Origin: a virus
Taxonomy: Duplodnaviria > Caudoviricetes
Length of the DNA: 64,000 bases
Strand: one strand, 5' to 3'
Virus record (IMG/VR): IMGVR_UViG_3300037755_000987
Location: 1-64,000 of that record
The position numbers and the translations under genes are program-made. Below, in pieces: positions 2,723 through 54,542 of the stretch. The notes under the pieces were generated by a model. It was not told where the DNA came from. It searched no databases and saw only the letters and a program-made list of their open reading frames with translations. How positions within the stretch are numbered: the stretch's first letter is position 1; every line of letters starts with the position of its first letter.

Positions 2723-3019
2723 ATGGAATCCGGAACGGTGAAGTGGTTCAACGACGAACGCGGCTACGGCTTCATCTTGCCGACCGCCGGCGGCGAGGAC
2801 GTCTTCTTCCACCACAAGACGATCGCGATGGCGGGCTTCCGCACCCTGAACGAGGGCGACGCCGTCAAGTTCGAGCGTGGCATCGACATCGGCCGCGGCC
2901 CGCTCGCCGAGAAGGTCATCCCGCCGGAGAGGCCGTTGCGCCGGCGGCAGCGACGGCCGCTCCAGCAGGGGCTGCCGCGCCGCGGCCGCGACCAGCAGCC
3001 GGGTCAGTCGCTGCGATGA
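2723..3019 (+). CDS. cold-shock domain protein with Arg/Gln-rich tail
   Basis: GTVKWFNDERGYGFI (RNP1), DVFFHH (RNP2), GFRTLNEG; RBS AAGGGAG. Confidence 0.92.
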   Translation: MESGTVKWFNDERGYGFILPTAGGEDVFFHHKTIAMAGFRTLNEGDAVKFERGIDIGRGPLAEKVIPPERPLRRRQRRPLQQGLPRRGRDQQPGQSLR

Positions 3020-3079
3020 GCGCCGCCCGCCACCCTGTTTTCCCCGTCGACAATCAGATAACCTAGGAAGGGGTCACGG

Positions 3080-4027
3080 ATGCCAATTACCGCAGAACAG
3101 CGCTCCGCACGGCGCAAGGGCCTCGGCTCGAGCGACATCGCCGCCATCATGGGTTTCGACCCGTTCCGTTCGGCCGGCGACGTCTGGGCGGAGAAGGTCT
3201 ACGACCTCGACGACCTCGATCCCGCGAAGAACAAGTCGATCAAGCGCGGCAACCAGTTCGAGCGGTCCATCCTCGAGGCGGCGGCCGAGGACAACGGCTT
3301 CGACCTCGAGCTCGATGATCAGGGGGTCCTCTCGCTGGTCAGCGCGAAGGACCCGCTCTTCCGCTGCAACCTCGACAGCCGCGTCATGACGACCGTCGAC
3401 GGCCAGCGCCGCCCACTGCCCGAAGCGGTCGAGGCGAAGTGGACGGCGATGGGCGAGGAGTGGGGCGAGGCCGGCACCGAAGAGGTGCCTCAGCGGGTCA
3501 TCCTCCAGGCCCACCAGCAGATGTTCGTGGGGGAGCTCGAGGTCGTCCGCCCCGCGGTTCTCCTCGCCCGCTACAGCCGCCCGGACGTGGACGTCTTCCT
3601 CGTCAGCCGTCGCGAAAAGCTCATCAACATCATCGTCGAGCAGGGCCACGCCTGGTGGGAGAAGCACGTCCTCGGTCGGGTGCCACCCGAGAACGACCCG
3701 CCGTCGATCGACACCATCAAGCGCATCCGGCGCGTGCCGAACGCCGTGGCCGAGATCTCGGCCGAGTTGGTCGAGGAGTGGGATCGGCTGCTCGCCGAGC
3801 GCCTGGCGCTCGAGAAGGATGAGAAAGCCGCGAAGGAGGCGATGCTCGCCGCTCTCGGCGACGCCGAAGCCGGCGACTACGGCGACCCGCTGAAGTGGGT
3901 CACGTACTTCGAGACGTCGACGAGCACCCTCGACCAGAAGCAGCTCGCTCGGGAGTACCCCGACGCCTACAACGCCTGCCGCCGGAGCGGCAGCTACCGC
4001 ACGCCGCGCCTCGTCAAGAGACGCTGA
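3080..4027 (+). CDS. YqaJ-like (lambda exonuclease family) recombination nuclease
   Basis: RRKGLGSSDIAAIMG, RGNQFE, CNLDS, VEAKW, QAHQQM. Confidence 0.9.
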   Translation: MPITAEQRSARRKGLGSSDIAAIMGFDPFRSAGDVWAEKVYDLDDLDPAKNKSIKRGNQFERSILEAAAEDNGFDLELDDQGVLSLVSAKDPLFRCNLDSRVMTTVDGQRRPLPEAVEAKWTAMGEEWGEAGTEEVPQRVILQAHQQMFVGELEVVRPAVLLARYSRPDVDVFLVSRREKLINIIVEQGHAWWEKHVLGRVPPENDPPSIDTIKRIRRVPNAVAEISAELVEEWDRLLAERLALEKDEKAAKEAMLAALGDAEAGDYGDPLKWVTYFETSTSTLDQKQLAREYPDAYNACRRSGSYRTPRLVKRR

Positions 4028-45442: not shown

Positions 45443-45696
45443 TGGGCTGCCCGCCGGCCGTCTACGATGCCCGCTACTACGAAGGGCTCCACAAGGTGGT
45501 GTGGCGCCGCGCCGGCTACCAGCGGGCGCTCTCCGCCTCGCTCGCTGCCGATCGGGCCGCTCGGCGAAGCCACACGCCGGCTCCCGCGACCCTCAGCACG
45601 GCAGCCCCGCGCCAGCGGCCACCTCGGCCCCGCGACCGTGGCGCTCGCAACCGCCGGCGCCGGAACCCCACCGCGCACCGATGCTGCCTTCGCTGA
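45442..45696 (+). CDS. basic hypothetical protein
   Basis: TGATG coupling. Confidence 0.4.
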   Translation: MGCPPAVYDARYYEGLHKVVWRRAGYQRALSASLAADRAARRSHTPAPATLSTAAPRQRPPRPRDRGARNRRRRNPTAHRCCLR

Positions 45697-46460
45697 TGGG
45701 CCGCCCTCGCCGCCACGGTGAACGCAAGCGCCGCCTGGCTGTGCGCCTGTACCGCGACGAAGGGCTGTCGATCAGCCTGGTCACCGCACGGCTGAACGAA
45801 GGAGCTCGCAAGGTGGTGTCGGCGACGTGGGTCTACCAGGTCCTCGACGCCGCCGGCGTGGTCAGGCGCTGCCCGGCTTGGCCGAGCTCGCTGGTGGCTC
45901 GCGCCGTTGAGCTCTACGTTGACCAACGCCTGAGCGCCCGAGGCGTCGCCAGGGAGCTCGCGGCCGAGAACGGCGGCCGCGGCCCGAGCCACGAGTGGGT
46001 CCACCGGCGGCTACTCGAGCGTGGCGTCTACCGCTGCCGCTCGGCGTCGCAGCGGGCCCGGCGGGAGGCCGAGGCCGGCCAGGACTACGCGGAGGCCGAG
46101 CGTCAGGCCGTGGCGCTGTACGGGGAGGGCTTCGGAGCCCCGACCGTGGCCGGCCGGCTGGGCGTCTCGAAGACGACGGTCCTGCGCTGGGTCCGGGCCC
46201 GGCGCGCGGCCGACGCCACCCGCAAGCGAGCGTGGGAAGCGCCGACCGACGCCGTCCGTGAGCGGCTCAGAAAGCGCGCCGAGGTGATCCGCCTCCGCGG
46301 CGAGCGCAAGACCTACGCCGCGATCGAGGAGGCGACCGGCGTGAGCGGACCCACGATCTACGGTTGGCTCCGGGCCGCCGGGATGGTTCGGGCGCAGCCA
46401 CGGCGTCGCGTCCCGTGCAGGTACCGCCTTCCTGGCGCCCCCGACGAGGCGATGCCATGA
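45696..46460 (+). CDS. four-HTH tandem repeat DNA-binding protein
   Basis: AVRLY-EGLS, AVELY--RLS, AVALY-EG-GVSKTTVLRWV, GVSGPTIYGWL. Confidence 0.75.
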   Translation: MGRPRRHGERKRRLAVRLYRDEGLSISLVTARLNEGARKVVSATWVYQVLDAAGVVRRCPAWPSSLVARAVELYVDQRLSARGVARELAAENGGRGPSHEWVHRRLLERGVYRCRSASQRARREAEAGQDYAEAERQAVALYGEGFGAPTVAGRLGVSKTTVLRWVRARRAADATRKRAWEAPTDAVRERLRKRAEVIRLRGERKTYAAIEEATGVSGPTIYGWLRAAGMVRAQPRRRVPCRYRLPGAPDEAMP

Positions 46461-46753: not shown

Positions 46754-47184
46754 GGCACCGCCGGAAGATGCGAGGCCGCGTCTCGGCGGCGGCGCAGCGA
46801 GCGATCGCCAAGGCGAAGCGTGACCAGGGTGGTGCCGGAATAGAGCGCGGTCGGCTCGCCGAAGAGCGCGCGCTGGCGGCGGTGCTCGACCACCGCGAAC
46901 GCTGGCCGGCTTGGCTGACCGGCGTCCGCGCCGCCACCGCCCTCGAGGACCGCCACGGCGTCGACCTCGTCGCCGAGACGGCCGACGCCGGCGAGGTCGG
47001 CATCCAGATCAAGGTGGGGAGCGCCTGGACGATCGCGAAGCACCCGGAGCGCTATCCGGAGGTGCCGTTGCTCGCCGTGGGCAGCGACAGCGGGCGGCCG
47101 CTCTACCAGCGGGCGCTGGGGCGGATCGGGGAAGGGCGTCGTCGGGAGCTGGCGCGGCGGGAAACCGAGGGGGCAACGAGGTGA
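46750..47184 (+). CDS. PD-(D/E)XK nuclease-like protein
   Basis: G-LAEE, EDRHGVDL, GIQIK. Confidence 0.6.
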   Translation: MRHRRKMRGRVSAAAQRAIAKAKRDQGGAGIERGRLAEERALAAVLDHRERWPAWLTGVRAATALEDRHGVDLVAETADAGEVGIQIKVGSAWTIAKHPERYPEVPLLAVGSDSGRPLYQRALGRIGEGRRRELARRETEGATR

Positions 47185-48938
47185 CGGTCCAGCCGATCAG
47201 CGCCACCCGTCCACCCCGCACCTACGGGACCTTGCGGCTGGCGAGCGCCGGCGCCGGGAAGTGGGTGATCGCCGCGGAGCCCCACGTCATCCAGACGGCA
47301 AAGCGGCTCTGGCGCCGGGGCGGCGGGGTGACCGGGAAGATCTACCTCGACGCGACTCCGGCGGCCGCCGTCGATCTCCGCTGGTTCCTCGACCGCTACC
47401 CGCTCGAGATGACGCCCGCCGACGAGTACCGCCTCCATGAGATCGCGGACCGGCACGAAGAGTCGCTCCTGAGGGTCCAGGACTACCTCGGCCACCACGT
47501 CCCGCCGCCCGCGTTCGCCCTCGCACTGCCGCCCCGCGACTACCAGGCGCGGGAGGCGGCGGTCGTGCTCGAGCAAGGGCACCTCCTGGTCGCCGACGAA
47601 GTTGGGCTTGGAAAGACGATCTCGGCGATCGCCGCGATGGCCGACACTCGCGCGCTCCCTGCTGTCGTGGTCACCCTGACGCACCTCCCGCACCAGTGGG
47701 CGGCGGAGGTCCGGAAGTTCGCGCCTGGCCTGCGCGTTCACGTCATCCGCAACGGGCCGCTCTACCCGCTCGACGGGTCGAAACCGAGCGCCGGCCAGGT
47801 CACGCTGCCCGGCTTCGCCACGCCCGACGTGGTCATCACCAGCTACTCCAAGCTGGCGAAGTGGGCGCAGGTGCTCCGTGAGTTCGCCCGCTACGTGGTC
47901 TTCGACGAGGTCCAGGAGTTGCGCCGGGTGGGTTCGCAGAAGTACGAAGCCGCGGCGGCGATCGCCCACGCTCCCGGTGTCGCTTACCGCATGGGGTGCT
48001 CGGCTACCCCAATTTACAATTACGGCGACGAGGTCTTCAGCGTGTTGAACGTCCTCGCTCCGGGCTCCCTTGGGACCTGGAGGGAGTTCTCTTCGGAGTG
48101 GTGCACCCCGATCGGCAACAACCGGCACAAGCTGCGTCAGCCGGCGGCGTTCGGGTCGTGGGCCCGGGAGCAAGGGTTGATGGTCCGGCACACCCGGGTC
48201 GAGGTCGGGCGCGAGTTGCCGGACGTCGTCGTATCCGTCCAGGAGATCGGGGCCGAGGCCCACCGGCTCGAGGAGATCGAAGGCCGCGCCGCCGAGCTCG
48301 CCAGAATCCTGATGGACTCCGCCGCCCGCGAGAAGGGCGAGAAGCTGATGGCGGGCGGCGAGCTCGACCGGATCTTGCGGCAGGCGACGGGCCTGGCGAA
48401 GGCACCGTACGTCGCGGAGTTCGTCCGGCTGTTGGTCGAATCCGGCGAGCGGGTGCTCCTGGCGGGGTGGCACCACGCATGCTACGACCTGTGGGCCGAG
48501 CGCCTGGCGCCGCTCCGGGTCGGCCGCTACACCGGGCACGAGACGTCGGCGCAGAAGCAGTTAATCGCCGGCGCCTTCATCGCCGGCGACCTCGACGTCC
48601 TGATGATCTCGCTGCGCGCCGGCGCCGGCCTCGACGGGCTGCAGGAGGCGGCGCGGGTGGTCGTCTTCGGCGAACTGGACTGGTCGCCTGGCGTCCACGA
48701 ACAGGTGATCGGGCGTCTCCACCGCGACGGGCAGCCCGACCCGGTCGTCGCCTACTACCTGGTGGCGGACAGCGGGTCTGACCCGGTCGTCGCGCAGGTG
48801 CTTGGGGTCAAGAAACAGCAGGCCCTGGGCGTGGTCGACCCGCACGCGAAGGAAGGAGACGGCCAACTCCTCGCCGGAGCGCAGGCGGATCGGGCGCGAC
48901 AGCTCGCCGAGTCCTGGATGGCGAGGTCGCAGCGATGA
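47181..48938 (+). CDS. SNF2-related SF2 helicase/ATPase
   Basis: VADEVGLGKT, VFDEVQELR, SATPIYN, SLRAGAGLDGLQ, DWSPGVHEQ-GRLHR-GQ. Confidence 0.92.
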   Translation: MTVQPISATRPPRTYGTLRLASAGAGKWVIAAEPHVIQTAKRLWRRGGGVTGKIYLDATPAAAVDLRWFLDRYPLEMTPADEYRLHEIADRHEESLLRVQDYLGHHVPPPAFALALPPRDYQAREAAVVLEQGHLLVADEVGLGKTISAIAAMADTRALPAVVVTLTHLPHQWAAEVRKFAPGLRVHVIRNGPLYPLDGSKPSAGQVTLPGFATPDVVITSYSKLAKWAQVLREFARYVVFDEVQELRRVGSQKYEAAAAIAHAPGVAYRMGCSATPIYNYGDEVFSVLNVLAPGSLGTWREFSSEWCTPIGNNRHKLRQPAAFGSWAREQGLMVRHTRVEVGRELPDVVVSVQEIGAEAHRLEEIEGRAAELARILMDSAAREKGEKLMAGGELDRILRQATGLAKAPYVAEFVRLLVESGERVLLAGWHHACYDLWAERLAPLRVGRYTGHETSAQKQLIAGAFIAGDLDVLMISLRAGAGLDGLQEAARVVVFGELDWSPGVHEQVIGRLHRDGQPDPVVAYYLVADSGSDPVVAQVLGVKKQQALGVVDPHAKEGDGQLLAGAQADRARQLAESWMARSQR

Positions 48939-49282
48939 CGCCGGCCGAGGTGGCGCGCGCCATCGAAGCCCGGCCCGGCAGGTGGGCTGACGAGGAGCAA
49001 CTGCAAGAGCACCTCGCTCAGGTGCTGGCGCCGCTCGGTTTTACTCGAGAGGTGATCGCCGGCGCCGACCGTTTCGACTTCGCGGCTGACGGGCTGATCG
49101 TCGAGGTCAAGGTCGGCGGCACGCCGGCGACGGTCATCCGCCAGCTTCTGCGCTACGCCGCTCGGCCGGACGTGTCGGGGCTGGTGCTCGCCGCGACGAA
49201 AGCGTCCCTCGGCGCAACCCCCGACACGCTGTCGGGCAAGCCGGTGGCGATCGCCCGGCTGTGGCTGTGGGGGCTGCTGTGA
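48935..49282 (+). CDS. small PD-(D/E)XK nuclease
   Basis: EEQLQE, RFDF, IVEVK, QLLRY. Confidence 0.65.
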   Translation: MTPAEVARAIEARPGRWADEEQLQEHLAQVLAPLGFTREVIAGADRFDFAADGLIVEVKVGGTPATVIRQLLRYAARPDVSGLVLAATKASLGATPDTLSGKPVAIARLWLWGLL

Positions 49283-50169
49283 GCCGCTTCGCGCCGGGCG
49301 ACCGCGTCGAGTGGGTCTCGCGCTCCGGCATCCGGCGAGAGGGCGAGATCGTCGAGGCCCTGCCGGGCAAGCAGTGGGCGGTGCGGCCGGATGGGTGCGC
49401 GGTGGAGCAGGCGGTGGACGCCGACGACCTGAGCCGCATCCCGGAGCCGGCGGACGCCTTGGAGCTCGGCGGCCCGGTGTCGGCCGTCCTCACGGTGCGG
49501 CAGCGAGAGAGCCGGGCTCGCAAGGCGGCGCTCGCAACACCGCCGGCGCAGCGCCGCGAACGGGCGAGACGAGCCGGGAAGGCGTCGGCGGCGAAGCGCG
49601 AACGCGAGCGGCAGCCGCCGGCCGCCGCCCCGCAGCACGCCGGCGACTTCGGCAGGGCCGGTGGGTTGGCGAGCGCCCAACGGCGAAGGGAGCGCGCCGC
49701 CACGGTCGATCAACCCCCCGCCGGGAAGAACCCCGCCGCCGTGGCGCTCGGGAAGCTCGGCGGCAAGAAGGGCGCCGAAGGCCGCATGGCGAAGCTCTCG
49801 CCGGAGGAGCGGTCGCGGATCGCGGCGCGGGCAGCGCGGGTACGGTGGGCGAAGACGAAGAGCGCGACCCCGGTCGCCGACGTCCAGCACGGCACCCGCC
49901 ACGCCTACATGAACCGCGGCTGCCGGTGCGCTCCCTGCCGGCAGGCGAACACCGACTACAACCGCGAGCGCTACCAGCAGCAACGGCGGGGGCTGCCGGC
50001 GACCAACGACCGCCGGAAGGTCACCCTTCGCGGTGGCGGCTCGCTCGTTGTCGAGGTCCGCGGGCTGACGGCGGCCGACGACGACATCCGCCTGGTCAAC
50101 GCGATCGCGGCCGCCATCGAGCTCTACGACGCCGCCGCGGGCGAGGGCGACGAGGCCAGCGAGCAATGA
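49279..50169 (+). CDS. mosaic basic nucleic-acid-binding protein
   Basis: SH3-like N-terminus; GRAGG/GKLGG repeats; KNPAAVALGKLGG-LSPEERSRIA; HGTRHAY-GCRC--C. Confidence 0.65.
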   Translation: MSRFAPGDRVEWVSRSGIRREGEIVEALPGKQWAVRPDGCAVEQAVDADDLSRIPEPADALELGGPVSAVLTVRQRESRARKAALATPPAQRRERARRAGKASAAKRERERQPPAAAPQHAGDFGRAGGLASAQRRRERAATVDQPPAGKNPAAVALGKLGGKKGAEGRMAKLSPEERSRIAARAARVRWAKTKSATPVADVQHGTRHAYMNRGCRCAPCRQANTDYNRERYQQQRRGLPATNDRRKVTLRGGGSLVVEVRGLTAADDDIRLVNAIAAAIELYDAAAGEGDEASEQ

Positions 50170-50351: not shown

Positions 50352-52685
50352 GTGAGCCTCCACGACGACGTCCTCGAGCGCCTGACCGGCTACGGCGCCC
50401 GCCTCCACAGCTTCGACGACGGCACCGTCTCGCTGATCCGCAAGATGCTCGAGGACCTCGAGGCGTCGCTGGTCGAACAGTTTCGGCTCGCCGACCCGAC
50501 GGCCATCGCGCGGCGCACCCACCGCCTCGCCCGCCTCGAGGCCATCCTCGCCCAGACCCGCGCCACGATCGACGGCACCTACGCTGAGCTCGGATCGACG
50601 CTGCGCAGCCGCCTCGAGGAGGTCGCGGGGTTCTCGATCGAGTTCACGCACGGCACGCTCGTCACTATGCTCGGCCCGGTCCGCACGGCGGTCGGCATCA
50701 ACACCGTCACCGTCTCGCCGGAGCTGCTGCGCCGCCTGGCTGACGACACGCTCATCTCGATGGGCGGGCGGACCGGAGCGGCGCCGGTCAAGGAGTGGCT
50801 CGCCACCCAGAAGGACGACGTCGTCAAGGCGTTCGCCGGCCAGATGCGCGAAGGATTGATGCGCGGCGAGGGCATCCCGGAGCTCGCCCGCCGGATCTCC
50901 GGCGGTGGCCGGCACGACGGCATCGGACCGATCTCGCGGGAGTGGGCGGAGGCCCTGGCGCGCACGGCCAACACGGCGGTGACGGCGGAAGCGCGGGAAG
51001 ACGTCTACGCCGCCAATTCGGCCGTGGTGAAGGGCATCTTCCACGTGACGACCCGTGATGAACGGACTTGCTTCGCTGCCGGCACGCTCGTACGATTGAG
51101 TGATGCGTCAGTCAAGCCAATCGAGGAGATCGTCCCCGGAGACACGATCATCTCCGGTTGCGGCCGCCCTCGAAGCGTCAGAGGAGTCCTCGAGCGGGTC
51201 GCCGCCGACTGGCGAACGATCGCCATCGCCGGCGGCGAGCTCGTTCACTGCACCGCCACGCACCCCTTCTGGACCGCCCGCGGCTGGCGGGAGGCCGAAG
51301 CGTTCAAGCCTGGAGACGTCATCGCTGTCGGCACCGTGTCTGGCCTGCGGCGGGACGCTGCCAGAGAAGCCGAAGGGACGGCGAGGGGGACCACTCGGAC
51401 CTCCGCGCCTCTACTGCTCGCCGCGATGCCAGGAGAAGGGCAAGAGAAACATCCAGGTGACAGGACGCTGCGAGGCCTGCGGAAACGATTGTCGGTCCTA
51501 CCCCAGTACGCCGCGCCGCTACTGCTCGCGAGCCTGCTACCTCGCGGCCAAGGCCAGCACGCGGCTGAAGCTGACGTGCGGGGCGTGCGGTCGCCCGTTC
51601 AAGGTGAGGGCCTCACGCGGCAAGAGGGAGGGGGGTCGGTCGCCGAAGTACTGCAGCCGGGCGTGCACACGCAAGGCGCTGGGCTTCCGACCGCCACGGG
51701 AGAAGGTTTGCGCGCGGTGCGGCGTCGGCTTTTCGGTCGAGGGCCGGCGAACAGAAAAGGCGAAGTACTGCTCGCTCGCCTGCAAGCATGGGCCGCGGAT
51801 CGAGCGACTCTGCCCCTCCTGCGGCGCATCGTTTTCGCATGTCCCGGCGCTGGATCAGGTCTACTGCTCGGTCGCGTGCTACAGAAGGAGTGCCGCCGAA
51901 ACCCGCACGGAAACGATGGTGAGGCTCGAGCTCGAGGAGATGGACCTGCCCTACGAGCAAGAGGTCAAGGTGGGTCGCTACTCCATCGACTTCGTCGTCT
52001 GCGGCTGGCTGGCTGTCGAACTCGACGGGACCTACTGGCACCGCAATCGCCCGGCAGCGAGGAAGGACGCGGCGGTGAGAGCGGCGGGCTACACGCTTCT
52101 GAGGATCACCCTCGACACGGCGACAGACGAGTCGCGCCTTCGTGTTCTGCGTCTACTGTGCCGCGCCCTTGCGGCTGGGCCGAGGTCGTCGCGATCGAGA
52201 GCGATCAGACGCCGGCCCTCTGTTACGACCTCGAGATCGAAGGCGACCACAGCTTCCTTGTCGGCCACGCCGGCCTGATCGCCCACAACACGATCGTCTG
52301 TCTGGCCTACGCCGGAAAAGCCTTCGTCCGCGACGCCGACGGCTTCTACCAGCCGCTCGGCCACAAGCTCCCGTACAACGGCGGCGTTCCGCGGCACGTC
52401 AGATGCCGGTCGGTCGAGGCTCCGATGGTGCGGTCGCTCAAGGAGCTCGGGTTGAGCGAGTCCGAGGTTCCACCTGAGCTGCGATCCGCCTTCGGCGCCA
52501 TGCCGCCGGCTGAGCAGCAGGGCGAGGCGATCCTCGCGGGGCTGAAGAAGAGCCAGCAGCTCAAGGTGCTCGGCCGCCGGCGGTACGACCTCTGGAAGCG
52601 CGGCGACGTGGGCCTCGCGCAGATGATCTCGCCCGACGGCCAGGTGCTCCGCCTCGACGAGATCGCGGCCGCGGCCACCTCCTGA
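50352..52685 (+). CDS. MuF/gpF (SPP1 gp7-like) head morphogenesis protein with intein
   Basis: LARTANTAV, exteins rejoin as DERT/TIVC, C-terminal PRHVRCRS; about 370 aa after splicing. Confidence 0.9.
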   Translation: MSLHDDVLERLTGYGARLHSFDDGTVSLIRKMLEDLEASLVEQFRLADPTAIARRTHRLARLEAILAQTRATIDGTYAELGSTLRSRLEEVAGFSIEFTHGTLVTMLGPVRTAVGINTVTVSPELLRRLADDTLISMGGRTGAAPVKEWLATQKDDVVKAFAGQMREGLMRGEGIPELARRISGGGRHDGIGPISREWAEALARTANTAVTAEAREDVYAANSAVVKGIFHVTTRDERTCFAAGTLVRLSDASVKPIEEIVPGDTIISGCGRPRSVRGVLERVAADWRTIAIAGGELVHCTATHPFWTARGWREAEAFKPGDVIAVGTVSGLRRDAAREAEGTARGTTRTSAPLLLAAMPGEGQEKHPGDRTLRGLRKRLSVLPQYAAPLLLASLLPRGQGQHAAEADVRGVRSPVQGEGLTRQEGGGSVAEVLQPGVHTQGAGLPTATGEGLRAVRRRLFGRGPANRKGEVLLARLQAWAADRATLPLLRRIVFACPGAGSGLLLGRVLQKECRRNPHGNDGEARARGDGPALRARGQGGSLLHRLRRLRLAGCRTRRDLLAPQSPGSEEGRGGESGGLHASEDHPRHGDRRVAPSCSASTVPRPCGWAEVVAIESDQTPALCYDLEIEGDHSFLVGHAGLIAHNTIVCLAYAGKAFVRDADGFYQPLGHKLPYNGGVPRHVRCRSVEAPMVRSLKELGLSESEVPPELRSAFGAMPPAEQQGEAILAGLKKSQQLKVLGRRRYDLWKRGDVGLAQMISPDGQVLRLDEIAAAATS
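51069..52289 (+). mobile_element. intein (407 aa)
   Basis: CFAAGT N-terminus, block B CTATHPF, block F YDLEIEGDHSF, block G AHN, +1 residue Thr. Confidence 0.93.
51103..52278 (+). CDS. zinc-finger plus Vsr/DUF559 (EDxHD-like) endonuclease in the +1 frame of the intein
   Basis: Five CxxCG...YCSxxC repeats, then YSIDF-LAVELDGTYWH-KD--GYTLLRI; start uncertain (ATG 51103 or CTG 51325). Confidence 0.85.
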   Translation: MRQSSQSRRSSPETRSSPVAAALEASEESSSGSPPTGERSPSPAASSFTAPPRTPSGPPAAGGRPKRSSLETSSLSAPCLACGGTLPEKPKGRRGGPLGPPRLYCSPRCQEKGKRNIQVTGRCEACGNDCRSYPSTPRRYCSRACYLAAKASTRLKLTCGACGRPFKVRASRGKREGGRSPKYCSRACTRKALGFRPPREKVCARCGVGFSVEGRRTEKAKYCSLACKHGPRIERLCPSCGASFSHVPALDQVYCSVACYRRSAAETRTETMVRLELEEMDLPYEQEVKVGRYSIDFVVCGWLAVELDGTYWHRNRPAARKDAAVRAAGYTLLRITLDTATDESRLRVLRLLCRALAAGPRSSRSRAIRRRPSVTTSRSKATTASLSATPA

Positions 52686-53441: not shown

Positions 53442-54542
53442 ATGATCCGCACCTACCGCTACCCACTCAAGCCGACGCGCGACCAGGTTCGCGTGCTCTA
53501 TTCGTGGCTCTCCTACTGCTGCGACCTCTACAACGCGGCCCTAGAGCATCGGATCGGAGCATGGCAGCAAAGTCGCGTTTCGGTGAGCTACAACGCGCAG
53601 TCCGTGGAGCTCACCGGGCTGAGGGCAGACGACGACCTCGCGGCGTCCATCCCGGTAGATGTGCAGCGCTCCGCGCTTCGTCGAGTCGACCGAGCCTTCC
53701 AGGCGTTCTTCCGACGAGTGAAGTCCGGCGATCGCCGGCCCGGCTTCCCGCGCTTCCGCAGCCGCCGGCGCTACGACTCCTTCGGGATCGGGCGGGTGAC
53801 GCCGGATGGCGACCGGGTCCGCGTCCCGAAGCTCGGGGCGGTGCGGTTCCACCTCTACCGGCCGCTGGTCGGCGAGGTCAAGGAGGTCACGATCCGCCGC
53901 TCGTGTGGTCGCTGGTTCGTGTGCTTCAACTGCGAGGTCGGCGCGGCGCCGGCGAAGCGGGCGGTCCGCTCCGCGATCGGCGTCGACCTCGGGCTGACCG
54001 CCTTCGCTGTCACCTCGGAAGGAAGGCGCTACGCCAACCCCCGGCACTTCAAGCGCGGCGAGGAGCTACTCGCGAAGCGCCAGCGACGGCTCGCCCGCCG
54101 CAGGCGCGGATCGAAGTCTCGCGAGCGTGCCCGCCTCCTGGTGGCGAAGGCGCACGAGCACGTCAAGCGCCAACGGCTCGACCACGCCTGGAAGCTGGCC
54201 GGCGCGCTGGTGGCTGAGCATGACCTGATCGCGGTCGAGGCCCTGAACATCGCGGGCCTCGCCCGAATGGACCTGAGCAAATCCGTCGCTGACGCCGGCT
54301 GGCGGGTGTTCCTCGAACGACTCGCACTCAAGGCAGAATGCGCCGGGGTGACGGTGGTCGAGGTGGACCCGCGGGGCACGTCGCAGCGCTGCTCAGGCTG
54401 TAGCGAGGTGGTGGAGAAGCGGCTGTGGGACCGCGTCCACGACTGCCCGCACTGCGGGCTGGTGCTGGACCGGGACTGGAACGCCGCCCTGAACATCCTG
54501 AACCTTGGCTATTCGCCCGGTAAGGGCGAGGCGGCAGCGTGA
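53442..54542 (+). CDS. tnpB: IS200/IS605-family RNA-guided endonuclease TnpB (no tnpA)
   Basis: RTYRYPLKP, GFPRFRS, IGVDLG (RuvC-I D), IAVEAL (RuvC-II E), CSGC/CPHC, DRDWNAALNI (RuvC-III D). Confidence 0.95.
   Translation: MIRTYRYPLKPTRDQVRVLYSWLSYCCDLYNAALEHRIGAWQQSRVSVSYNAQSVELTGLRADDDLAASIPVDVQRSALRRVDRAFQAFFRRVKSGDRRPGFPRFRSRRRYDSFGIGRVTPDGDRVRVPKLGAVRFHLYRPLVGEVKEVTIRRSCGRWFVCFNCEVGAAPAKRAVRSAIGVDLGLTAFAVTSEGRRYANPRHFKRGEELLAKRQRRLARRRRGSKSRERARLLVAKAHEHVKRQRLDHAWKLAGALVAEHDLIAVEALNIAGLARMDLSKSVADAGWRVFLERLALKAECAGVTVVEVDPRGTSQRCSGCSEVVEKRLWDRVHDCPHCGLVLDRDWNAALNILNLGYSPGKGEAAA

Follow-up and report, generated by a model that had tools for sequence, protein, structure and literature searches.

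An intein-bearing gene for a MuF-like head-morphogenesis protein (SPP1 gp7/Mu F family), which is present in the DNA of an uncultured phage (Duplodnaviria; Caudoviricetes), is the subject of this work. The stretch of DNA that was analyzed, which we will refer to as the window, is 64,000 nucleotides long and corresponds to positions 1–64,000 of the IMG/VR virus record IMGVR_UViG_3300037755_000987; the complete record is 87.4 kilobases in length with a guanine-plus-cytosine (GC) content of 69.6%. An earlier note on this DNA, which was based upon the sequence alone, had proposed that a homing endonuclease is encoded in the +1 frame of this intein, whose own frame is unbroken. The features of the locus are summarized in Table 1. 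Throughout this work, the host frame refers to the reading frame of the MuF-like gene including its intein, and +1 is stated relative to it.

Table 1. Features of the MuF-like gene, its intein and the gene nested within it (positions are those of the window; ORF, open reading frame; GC3, GC content at third codon positions).
Feature	Positions	Strand	Extent or basis
MuF-like (SPP1 gp7/Mu F family) head-morphogenesis precursor gene, intein included	50352..52685	+	777 codons; ORF list, Pfam, collinearity with P0154
N-extein, ending in ...VTTRDERT	50352..51068	+	BLASTP against intein-free P0154
Class-1-type intein, C1 to HN, followed by Thr+1	51069..52289	+	407 codons; Pfam Intein_splicing, P0154
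N-terminal splicing subdomain of the intein (residues ~1–92; blocks A and B)	51069..51344	+	AlphaFold, GC3
Host-frame read-through filler, intein residues about 93–365	51345..52163	+	Stop-free, not conserved, without a confident fold
C-terminal splicing subdomain of the intein (residues ~366–407; blocks F and G)	52164..52289	+	AlphaFold, invariant HN
C-extein, starting TIVCLAYAGK, stop codon included	52290..52685	+	Comparison with P0154
+1-frame ORF holding the homing-endonuclease gene, first GTG after upstream stop to next stop	51100..52278	+	392 codons plus TGA
GGAGA, Gly-Asp codons of the intein 'GD' motif doubling as a Shine-Dalgarno-like site	51312..51316	+	GGAG-type motif in +1 relatives
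CTG in the +1 frame, 8 nucleotides past GGAGA, candidate weak start	51325..51327	+	317-residue product; position of TTG in L011
Five tandem C-x2-C...YCS-x2-C zinc-finger modules, presumed DNA-binding	51337..51879	+	Regex positions, alignment A1, model
Vsr-like/EDxHD-type PD-(D/E)xK nuclease domain	51904..52165	+	Pfam DUF559 and MTES_1575, Foldseek
TGA stop of the +1 gene, within the intein C-terminal splicing region	52276..52278	+	ORF list

The intein corresponds to codons 240–646 of the MuF-like ORF, all 407 of which are open. Its match to the Pfam family Intein_splicing has a score of 36.4 bits (cut-off 35.8), while the match of the host protein to Phage_Mu_F is weak, this family (PF04233) being matched by 23 of 59 homologous host ORFs. 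In an alignment of 59 related inteins, the residues C1, T62 and H65 (the TxxH motif), H406 and N407 are invariant, and the +1 extein residue is Thr in the window and in four relatives (L011, L012, L033, and L146) but Cys in the others. The limits of the intein are based upon comparison with an intein-free homologue from another metagenome (P0154, 370 residues), which is collinear with the host protein of the window and ~58% identical to it in BLASTP. The sequence of P0154 at the junction is VTTRDEHT↓TIVCLAYAGKGF, the arrow marking the position of the junction, whereas that of the window is VTTRDERT-[407 residues]-TIVCLAYAGKAF. Because P0154 reads without a break across this point, the intein boundaries are exact and exact excision of the intein is implied.

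When the intein was folded with AlphaFold together with the 59 related inteins, both halves of the Hint domain (beta-rich residues 1–90 and residues about 369–407) were modelled with a pLDDT (predicted local distance difference test) score of 94–98. The filler of about 273 codons that lies between them scored only 30–52 in the same model. Its composition is also distinctive, as the residues R, G, A, and L make up 56% of the host-frame centre vs. 42% of the exteins. The host-frame GC3 is 0.78–0.93 in the exteins and both intein ends and 0.88–0.93 in the flanks of the region 51331–52160, and over this region the highest GC content (0.81) is found at position 3 of the +1 frame. In their codon usage, the ~273 central codons of the intein are in line with the +1 frame.

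The +1 ORF encodes a product for which a confident structure is predicted (mean pLDDT of 90.6; AlphaFold2 with a family alignment of 30 sequences). The first cysteines of its five fingers are residues 80, 124, 160, 204, and 238 of the ORF, alignment A1 shows no or almost no variation at the finger cysteines, and the fingers are modelled as repeats of a beta-hairpin plus a helix with pLDDT around 90. The nuclease domain is matched by DUF559 (23.0 bits, cut-off 20.6) and by MTES_1575 (E = 1.8e-6). In Foldseek, the best match of the C-terminal domain in the PDB is 3r3p (catalytic domain of the homing endonuclease I-Bth0305I; E = 1.2e-4, probability 1.0, 26% identity, template modelling (TM) score of 0.62 on the target), the Escherichia coli Vsr protein (1vsr) is found at rank 12, and 3hrl is also listed; by Foldseek and by its DUF559 match, the product belongs to the PD-(D/E)xK Vsr-like fold. 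Within the 30 aligned sequences E195, D221, E231, and H238 are invariant and D233 is nearly so, and all of these candidate catalytic residues, numbered as in A1, are present in the window. Three statements of the earlier note were thus borne out: the span of the intein (51069–52289, with 407 open codons and intact splicing blocks) was correct to the residue, the central ~270 residues are an R/G/A/L-rich filler without a recognisable domain, and the +1 frame, open from 51100 to 52278 with five fingers and a complete Vsr/DUF559 nuclease, was seen again by ORF, motif, Pfam, and fold analyses.

Relatives of the +1 product are numerous, with 2093 detected at E<1e-3 by HMMER among 1.84 billion representative proteins. 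Nearly all of the best 150 of these are 210–350 residues long and align only to query residues about 100–350, and within these 150 the parts of the query that overlap the splicing domains were never matched. When genome contigs were searched with a single +1 protein, one distant free-standing finger-plus-HNH gene, from a Pseudorhodoplanes metagenome-assembled genome, was the only result. In this gene (L001, positions 2863–3624), which lies beside a ParB-like/methylase gene, the same YCS-type finger array is joined to an HNH rather than a Vsr-like domain. As a DNA-binding module, this array appears to be portable. A search of viral contigs with the whole 777-residue host protein yielded one weak relative only, and in a tblastn search of 50,697 records of cultured phages the only matches, weak ones in the finger region, were to mycobacteriophage endonucleases of the free-standing kind, with no +1 arrangement seen at that sensitivity.

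Additional relatives were obtained by profile from 160 viral and metagenome loci; when these were combined with the loci found before, the nucleases fell into 131 clusters at 90% identity. A nuclease was counted as nested if it was located wholly inside a longer open frame reaching at least 50 codons beyond both of its ends. The nuclease was nested in the +1 frame in 18 of these clusters and in antisense orientation in 59; a further 13 clusters were at contig edges and 41 were without a covering frame. The contigs of the nested clusters span 32% to 73% GC. The covering frames matched Intein_splicing or Hint in 14/18 of the +1 and 51/59 of the antisense clusters, and matches to Phage_Mu_F, to portal fusions and, in two cases, to ADP-ribosyltransferase toxin domains (PF03496) were also observed. 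All nested clusters share a common insertion site, D-x-x-x↓C(F)...HN↓C/T-x-x-C. The homologs are therefore not all in frame, as 17 further +1 clusters and 59 antisense clusters are found at the same MuF site. In L011 and L012, the loci of two of the best-scoring relatives, as in the window, an uninterrupted MuF ORF continues through an intein at this site with the nuclease in the +1 frame. In a FastTree phylogeny of the nucleases, the window nuclease is part of a clade of 13 members, all of which are of the +1 type. At least three changes are required on this tree to account for the +1 label and at least six for the antisense label, although the deep branches are weak. Based upon these label changes, the +1 and antisense phases were probably each reached more than once.

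It is of importance to determine which of the two frames is under selection. The closest relatives of the window are 39–44% identical and synonymous sites are saturated; frame-wise amino acid identity over the codon-aligned overlap was used here rather than the ratio of nonsynonymous to synonymous substitution rates (dN/dS). In every codon-aligned comparison, the identity in the nuclease frame was higher than that in the host frame: 0.44 vs. 0.28 for the window and L011, 0.61 vs. 0.33 for L050 and L056, and 0.83 vs. 0.71 for L141 and L083. Between the window and its relatives, host-frame identity ranged from 0.15 to 0.28 and nuclease-frame identity from 0.29 to 0.44 (0.39 with L012). The least conserved base across the overlap is position 3 of the nuclease codons. 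These results show that the nuclease frame is the frame under protein-level selection, and that the host frame is constrained solely to lack stops; through the nuclease gene the latter is not conserved and is predicted to be unstructured.

The constraint against stops is observed in all nested members of the family. None of the 18 +1 clusters and none of the 59 antisense clusters contains a host-frame stop, where 3.5–39 stops are expected for the +1 clusters and up to 17.8 for the antisense clusters (the highest value being for a lineage of 32% GC). For the window, 3.3 host-frame stops are expected from the codon usage of the exteins (probability of none = 0.034) and 4.6 by synonymous permutation within the gene (probability of none = 0.003). 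From the selection against host-frame stops, we infer that the precursor protein undergoes splicing. Of the five possible phases only two are seen, viz. the +1 phase with respect to the host frame and an antisense phase in which the codons of the two genes lie exactly opposite each other. In the +1 phase, a host-frame stop requires a nuclease codon NNT followed by AA, AG, or GA, and the synonymous change of NNT to NNC always removes it. In the antisense register, a host-frame stop arises where the nuclease has the codon TTA, CTA, or TCA, and each of these codons has synonyms. Dynamic programming over all synonymous codings of 126 family proteins gave zero unavoidable stops in these two phases, as compared to means of 0.67 per protein in the +2 phase and 3.3 and 2.5 in the remaining antisense phases. 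The +1 phase is thus not arbitrary: only in this phase and in the codon-opposite-codon antisense phase can synonymous choice avoid all host-frame stops.

These observations also bear upon a caveat raised in the earlier note, that two compensating indels near 51330 and 52160 have displaced an ordinary in-frame endonuclease domain. The frame switches do lie close to the domain borders, and the support for the sequence comes from Logan contigs, not raw reads, the only run bridging both frame junctions being probably that of the source sample. However, an independent Logan assembly of this probable source run is identical to the window over 50900–52500 with no indels, and two compensating sequencing errors are therefore excluded. 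Further, 17 other +1 clusters from independent samples, with protein identities of 29–45% to the window, show the same phase at the same site, each of them starts at a codon of its own and terminates within the C-terminal region of the intein, and host-frame stops are specifically avoided. The caveat is thus refuted, and we assign virtually no likelihood to an artefactual origin of this arrangement.

The manner in which the nested genes could be expressed is indicated by the signals that precede them. The start codon is TTG in 10/18 of the +1 genes (L011 and 9 of the other 16), 6–29 codons ahead of the first Cys, and in most +1 relatives a GGAG-type motif is present 5–8 nucleotides upstream of the start. 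In the intein frame, this motif encodes the Gly-Asp of a conserved L-x-x-G-D motif that follows block B. In the closest relative, L011, the arrangement is GGAGGG-cgactacc-TTG, with an 8-nucleotide spacing equal to that in the window. Of the antisense genes, 53/59 start with ATG, which in many cases is 4–6 codons ahead of the first Cys. Upstream of these genes there is either an AGGAG, spaced as a Shine-Dalgarno site would be, or a TGnTATAAT-like box that ends about 7 nucleotides before the ATG. Examples of the latter are found in L003 (positions 2887–2935), L029, L073, L093, L096, L136, and L149, and the position of this box suggests that these antisense genes have leaderless mRNAs.

An alternative means of expression is programmed frameshifting, in which ribosomes shift by +1 and then by −1 to produce a canonical intein, or by +1 only to produce a fusion of N-extein, intein N-half and nuclease that acts as the active nuclease. 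The +1 frame of the window is open from 51100, well before the fingers, there is no canonical start near the first finger, and the nuclease of L092 (see below), which is fused in frame to the intein N-half, indicates that such fusions can exist. This mechanism is, however, not available to the 59 antisense clusters, which make up most of the family. The +1 relatives have a Shine-Dalgarno-like site with TTG or ATG, their +1 frames are closed 7–50 codons upstream of the first finger, and no conserved slippery site was noted. We know of no precedent for a double frameshift of +1 followed by −1. Frameshifting is thus very improbable, and of the two routes to separate translation suggested in the earlier note, it is internal initiation that is supported by the GGAG motif with TTG or ATG in the relatives, while frameshifting is opposed by the antisense majority.

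Information regarding the mobility of this intein was obtained from other metagenomes. In a second sediment sample, a contig covering 50900–51239 differs from the window at 11 of 169 N-extein positions, all of them at host codon position 3 and nine of them synonymous. The 11 substitutions are located at 50978–51062, within the last 91 nucleotides of the N-extein, and the boundary of divergence is at most 7 nucleotides from the intein junction. In contrast, all 810 intein bases covered in this sample, whose contigs bridge neither 51330 nor 52160, are identical (Fisher p = 3e-9 vs. the N-extein). An identical intein within a diverged N-extein is the pattern expected from recent homing. With regard to a possibly sporadic, horizontally transferred distribution, a related phage carries an intein-free allele and the second sample carries, at low depth, the identical intein in a diverged N-extein. 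A 151-nucleotide contig from a 2025 soil metagenome shows a C-to-T change at 51529 (depth 2), which converts CGA to TGA in the nuclease frame and Ala to Val in the intein frame; this is possibly a nuclease-dead allele, but at this depth it may also be a sequencing error.

Based upon these results, we consider it likely, with a probability of roughly 0.85, that the locus represents a composite selfish element, in which a homing-endonuclease gene of the free-standing type is nested in the +1 frame within the endonuclease-insertion loop of a contiguous MuF intein. The insertion site of this element in MuF is the conserved D-x-R-T↓C/T-x-x-C. Ribosomes would translate the MuF precursor straight across the approximately 273 filler codons, and the N- and C-terminal Hint halves would then associate and splice, so that filler and intein leave together. 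The nuclease would be made by internal initiation on the same mRNA, using the GGAGA provided by the intein Gly-Asp codons and a weak start (CTG in the window), and it would cut the intein-free MuF alleles of co-infecting phages, with repair copying intein and nuclease jointly. At the level of the sequence, the selection acting upon it and the predicted structures, this mechanism is shown by the data, and for the steps of splicing, translation start, and cleavage the events described are those that these data lead us to expect. The suggestion in the earlier note of an overprinted selfish element, with an open filler frame and a separate +1 nuclease, is likewise supported by the recurrence of the arrangement, the frame-wise conservation, the folds, and the start signals of the relatives.

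A number of observations weigh against this interpretation. It presumes that splicing takes place across an unstructured insert of 273 residues. At 69.6% GC, the open host frame of the window by itself is only moderately improbable, and for this reason the strong stop-avoidance statistics are those from the relatives. The hint of mobility is based upon low-depth contigs (3.7x), and ordinary recombination could also have produced the observed pattern. In addition, no canonical start is present near the first finger of the window: the only canonical starts in its +1 ORF are the GTG at 51100 and the ATG at 51103, which lie 78–79 codons upstream and lack a convincing Shine-Dalgarno site. Due to this, the window copy of the nuclease may be poorly expressed or newly silenced. 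The start in the window can be read in three ways: CTG may serve as a weak start, the product may have an N-terminal extension of 77 residues, or the gene may have been silenced recently. The odds that this copy still makes the nuclease appear to be roughly even.

The last of these readings can be extended to an explanation of the whole locus as a real but decaying element late in its homing cycle, where the nuclease is untranslated following a change of its start from TTG to CTG and what remains is a splicing-only intein with a long linker. The window indeed has CTG where L011 has its TTG start, at an equal 8-nucleotide spacing from GGAG, and in the soil contig the CGA-to-TGA change at 51529 breaks the nuclease frame while the host frame stays open; taken jointly, the two observations hint that nuclease-dead alleles are in circulation. 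Decay is not suggested, however, by the reading frame itself, which is intact over 317 codons and retains every Cys, Glu, Asp, and His that is invariant in the family, nor by the identity of the intein in the second sample within a diverged extein, which suggests a recent transfer. Moreover, some low-level initiation of translation at CTG can occur in bacteria, and weak expression is typical of homing endonucleases. On balance, we consider a decaying copy to be rather unlikely.

It could also be proposed that the nuclease has been co-opted, for example for phage competition, for exclusion of co-infecting relatives or for regulation, and that the intein serves only as a safe harbour. Members of the nuclease family do occur in free-standing form with no intein nearby (about 37/131 clusters), and some of the MuF hosts contain the toxin domains noted above. 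Nevertheless, across highly diverged phages the nuclease is strictly tied to one insertion site in one host protein, and the identical intein in a diverged extein is a classical signature of homing; exclusion and homing are also compatible with each other. Co-option without homing is thus improbable, and the composite selfish element is the interpretation that we favour.

In canonical bifunctional inteins such as PI-SceI, the LAGLIDADG or HNH endonuclease domain is in frame and forms a part of the intein polypeptide. The window intein resembles these in its Hint fold, in the presence of endonuclease DNA in the insertion loop between blocks B and F, and in its presumed homing cycle, but it differs in that its polypeptide carries filler and the nuclease would be a separate protein. 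Antisense LAGLIDADG genes inside inteins are said, in the citations of the preprint considered below, to have been described by Gorbalenya in 1998 and by Gogarten and coworkers in 2002. In these, as in the window, the endonuclease is encoded in the intein DNA but out of the intein frame; it is, however, on the opposite strand and belongs to a different nuclease family.

In minor capsid proteins, full inteins that contain antisense VSR-like nucleases have been described recently, together with antisense LAGLIDADG nucleases and one same-strand endonuclease VII-like gene in 'frame 3' (Gosselin, Arsenault and Gogarten, bioRxiv 10.1101/2025.01.02.630785). As such inteins are described in this 2025 preprint, their general architecture is already known. 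The preprint predicts that inteins with out-of-frame endonucleases are commoner than thought. The types that it lists do not include an in-frame VSR-like homing endonuclease, and VSR-like homing endonucleases are stated to have been previously known only with split inteins. The inteins in the preprint share with the window a contiguous intein with a structureless centre, a complete endonuclease in another frame or strand, MuF-like minor capsid hosts, and VSR-like nucleases. Two characteristics of the class, an open but structureless intein frame and a complete nuclease that folds in another frame of its centre, are present in the window. The origin proposed there, in which a free-standing endonuclease gene invades an intein, is the same as that envisaged here. 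In contrast to the VSR-like members in the preprint, all of which are antisense, the five-zinc-finger VSR-like nuclease of the window is encoded in the +1 frame of the same strand, and while the preprint data are from cultured actinophages, those presented here are from uncultured phages covering 32–73% GC. The words 'promoter' and 'ribosom' are absent from the preprint, and start signals, stop avoidance, and a two-phase rule are untreated there. That text contains neither a VSR-like form in the same-strand +1 frame nor the phase rule, the statistics on stop avoidance, or the start signals.

Two other systems are related in part. In the 'fractured genes' described by Dassa et al. (2009; PMC2677866), split inteins flank a free-standing Vsr-like or GIY-YIG endonuclease gene on the same strand, with a stop codon and a non-coding spacer of 27–51 nucleotides before the nuclease gene and a separate start for the gene of the intein C-half. 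These genes have in common with the window their occurrence in phages, the Vsr-like superfamily, the same-strand position between the intein halves, and the overlap of the 3′ end of the nuclease gene with the coding region of the intein C-half. The host frame of the window is, however, continuous over 50352–52685 and thus it is not a split gene. I-Bth0305I, which is encoded within a recA group I intron, is a homing endonuclease of the EDxHD family (Taylor et al., 2011; PMC3239194; PDB 3r3p). Both it and the window enzyme are from phages and have a PD-(D/E)xK Vsr-like core, but the N-terminal DNA-binding region of I-Bth0305I is different, whereas the window enzyme has five C-x2-C...YCS-x2-C fingers and sits in an intein.

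Other states of the same family were also observed, all of them located at the MuF site or close to it. In L026 (2177–5752, minus strand) and L065 (977–4315, minus strand), with 39% and 43% GC, respectively, 9 and 15 host-frame stops are present between the intein halves, where an antisense nuclease is located; these are apparently true split ('fractured') MuF genes in which the endonuclease gene is antisense. In L092 (1274–3344, plus strand), the N-extein, intein N-half, and finger-Vsr nuclease form one ORF, while the intein C-half and C-extein have their own ATG in an overlapping frame, so that this locus looks like a hybrid of an in-frame intein and a fractured gene. L025 (56–3595, minus strand) encodes a MuF-ADP-ribosyltransferase fusion with two inteins, one of which has an antisense finger-Vsr gene, while the second (residues about 488–859) contains DUF559/MTES_1575 in frame, i.e., it is a canonical in-frame Vsr-like intein. 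Similarly, in the JGI 3300037478 contig L011 (3–4709), a MuF-toxin fusion ORF has two intein-like insertions, the first at the site DGRT↓C with a +1-frame nuclease (P0004) and the second (...PPFHYN / CRTT...) with a DUF559 gene on the opposite strand. Since the family includes split forms at this very site (L026, L065, and L092), it is plausible that inteins of the window type are precursors of split inteins. These loci and L025 support a relationship between the contiguous and split forms, and they would be compatible with more than one order of change. We tentatively suggest, at somewhat less than even likelihood, that the nested nucleases at the MuF site represent an evolutionary hub. Entry into the intein would be possible only in the two 'synonymous-escape' phases, subsequent single indels or stops would lead to in-frame (L025), fused (L092), and split (L026, L065) forms, and the same-strand Gly-Asp codons, serving as a ribosome-binding site, would couple the nuclease to translation of the host gene.

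In the surroundings of this locus, a 366-residue TnpB/IS605 OrfB-like gene (53442–54542, plus strand; matching OrfB_IS605, Cas12f1-like TNB, and HTH_OrfB_IS605) is located about 750 nucleotides downstream of the MuF gene and constitutes a second mobile-element nuclease in the phage structural region. Upstream of the MuF gene are found a SNF2-family helicase (46911–48938, plus strand) and a multi-helix-turn-helix protein (45501–46460, plus strand) with a weak match to Terminase_5, and the directly adjoining ORF at 49261–50169 has no match in Pfam.

Nested genes of this kind are missed by standard annotation pipelines, and in 77/131 clusters the nuclease is hidden inside an intein-bearing MuF gene. 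Hence, inteins that are labelled as 'decaying' or as 'mini with long linker' may carry working endonucleases. The case presented here supports the view of intein origin in which splicing came first and the endonuclease invaded later, and as a single family has contiguous, in-frame, and split members at a single site, the order of these events becomes testable. It is also a clean natural case of overprinting, with selection for a protein in one frame and solely for freedom from stops in the other, where the allowed phases can be predicted from the genetic code. More speculatively, multi-finger Vsr-like nucleases, and inteins that would splice across about 270 unstructured residues, may be of interest to protein engineers. 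If the hub interpretation is true, it would provide a testable rule for the acquisition of endonucleases by inteins and for the origin of split inteins.

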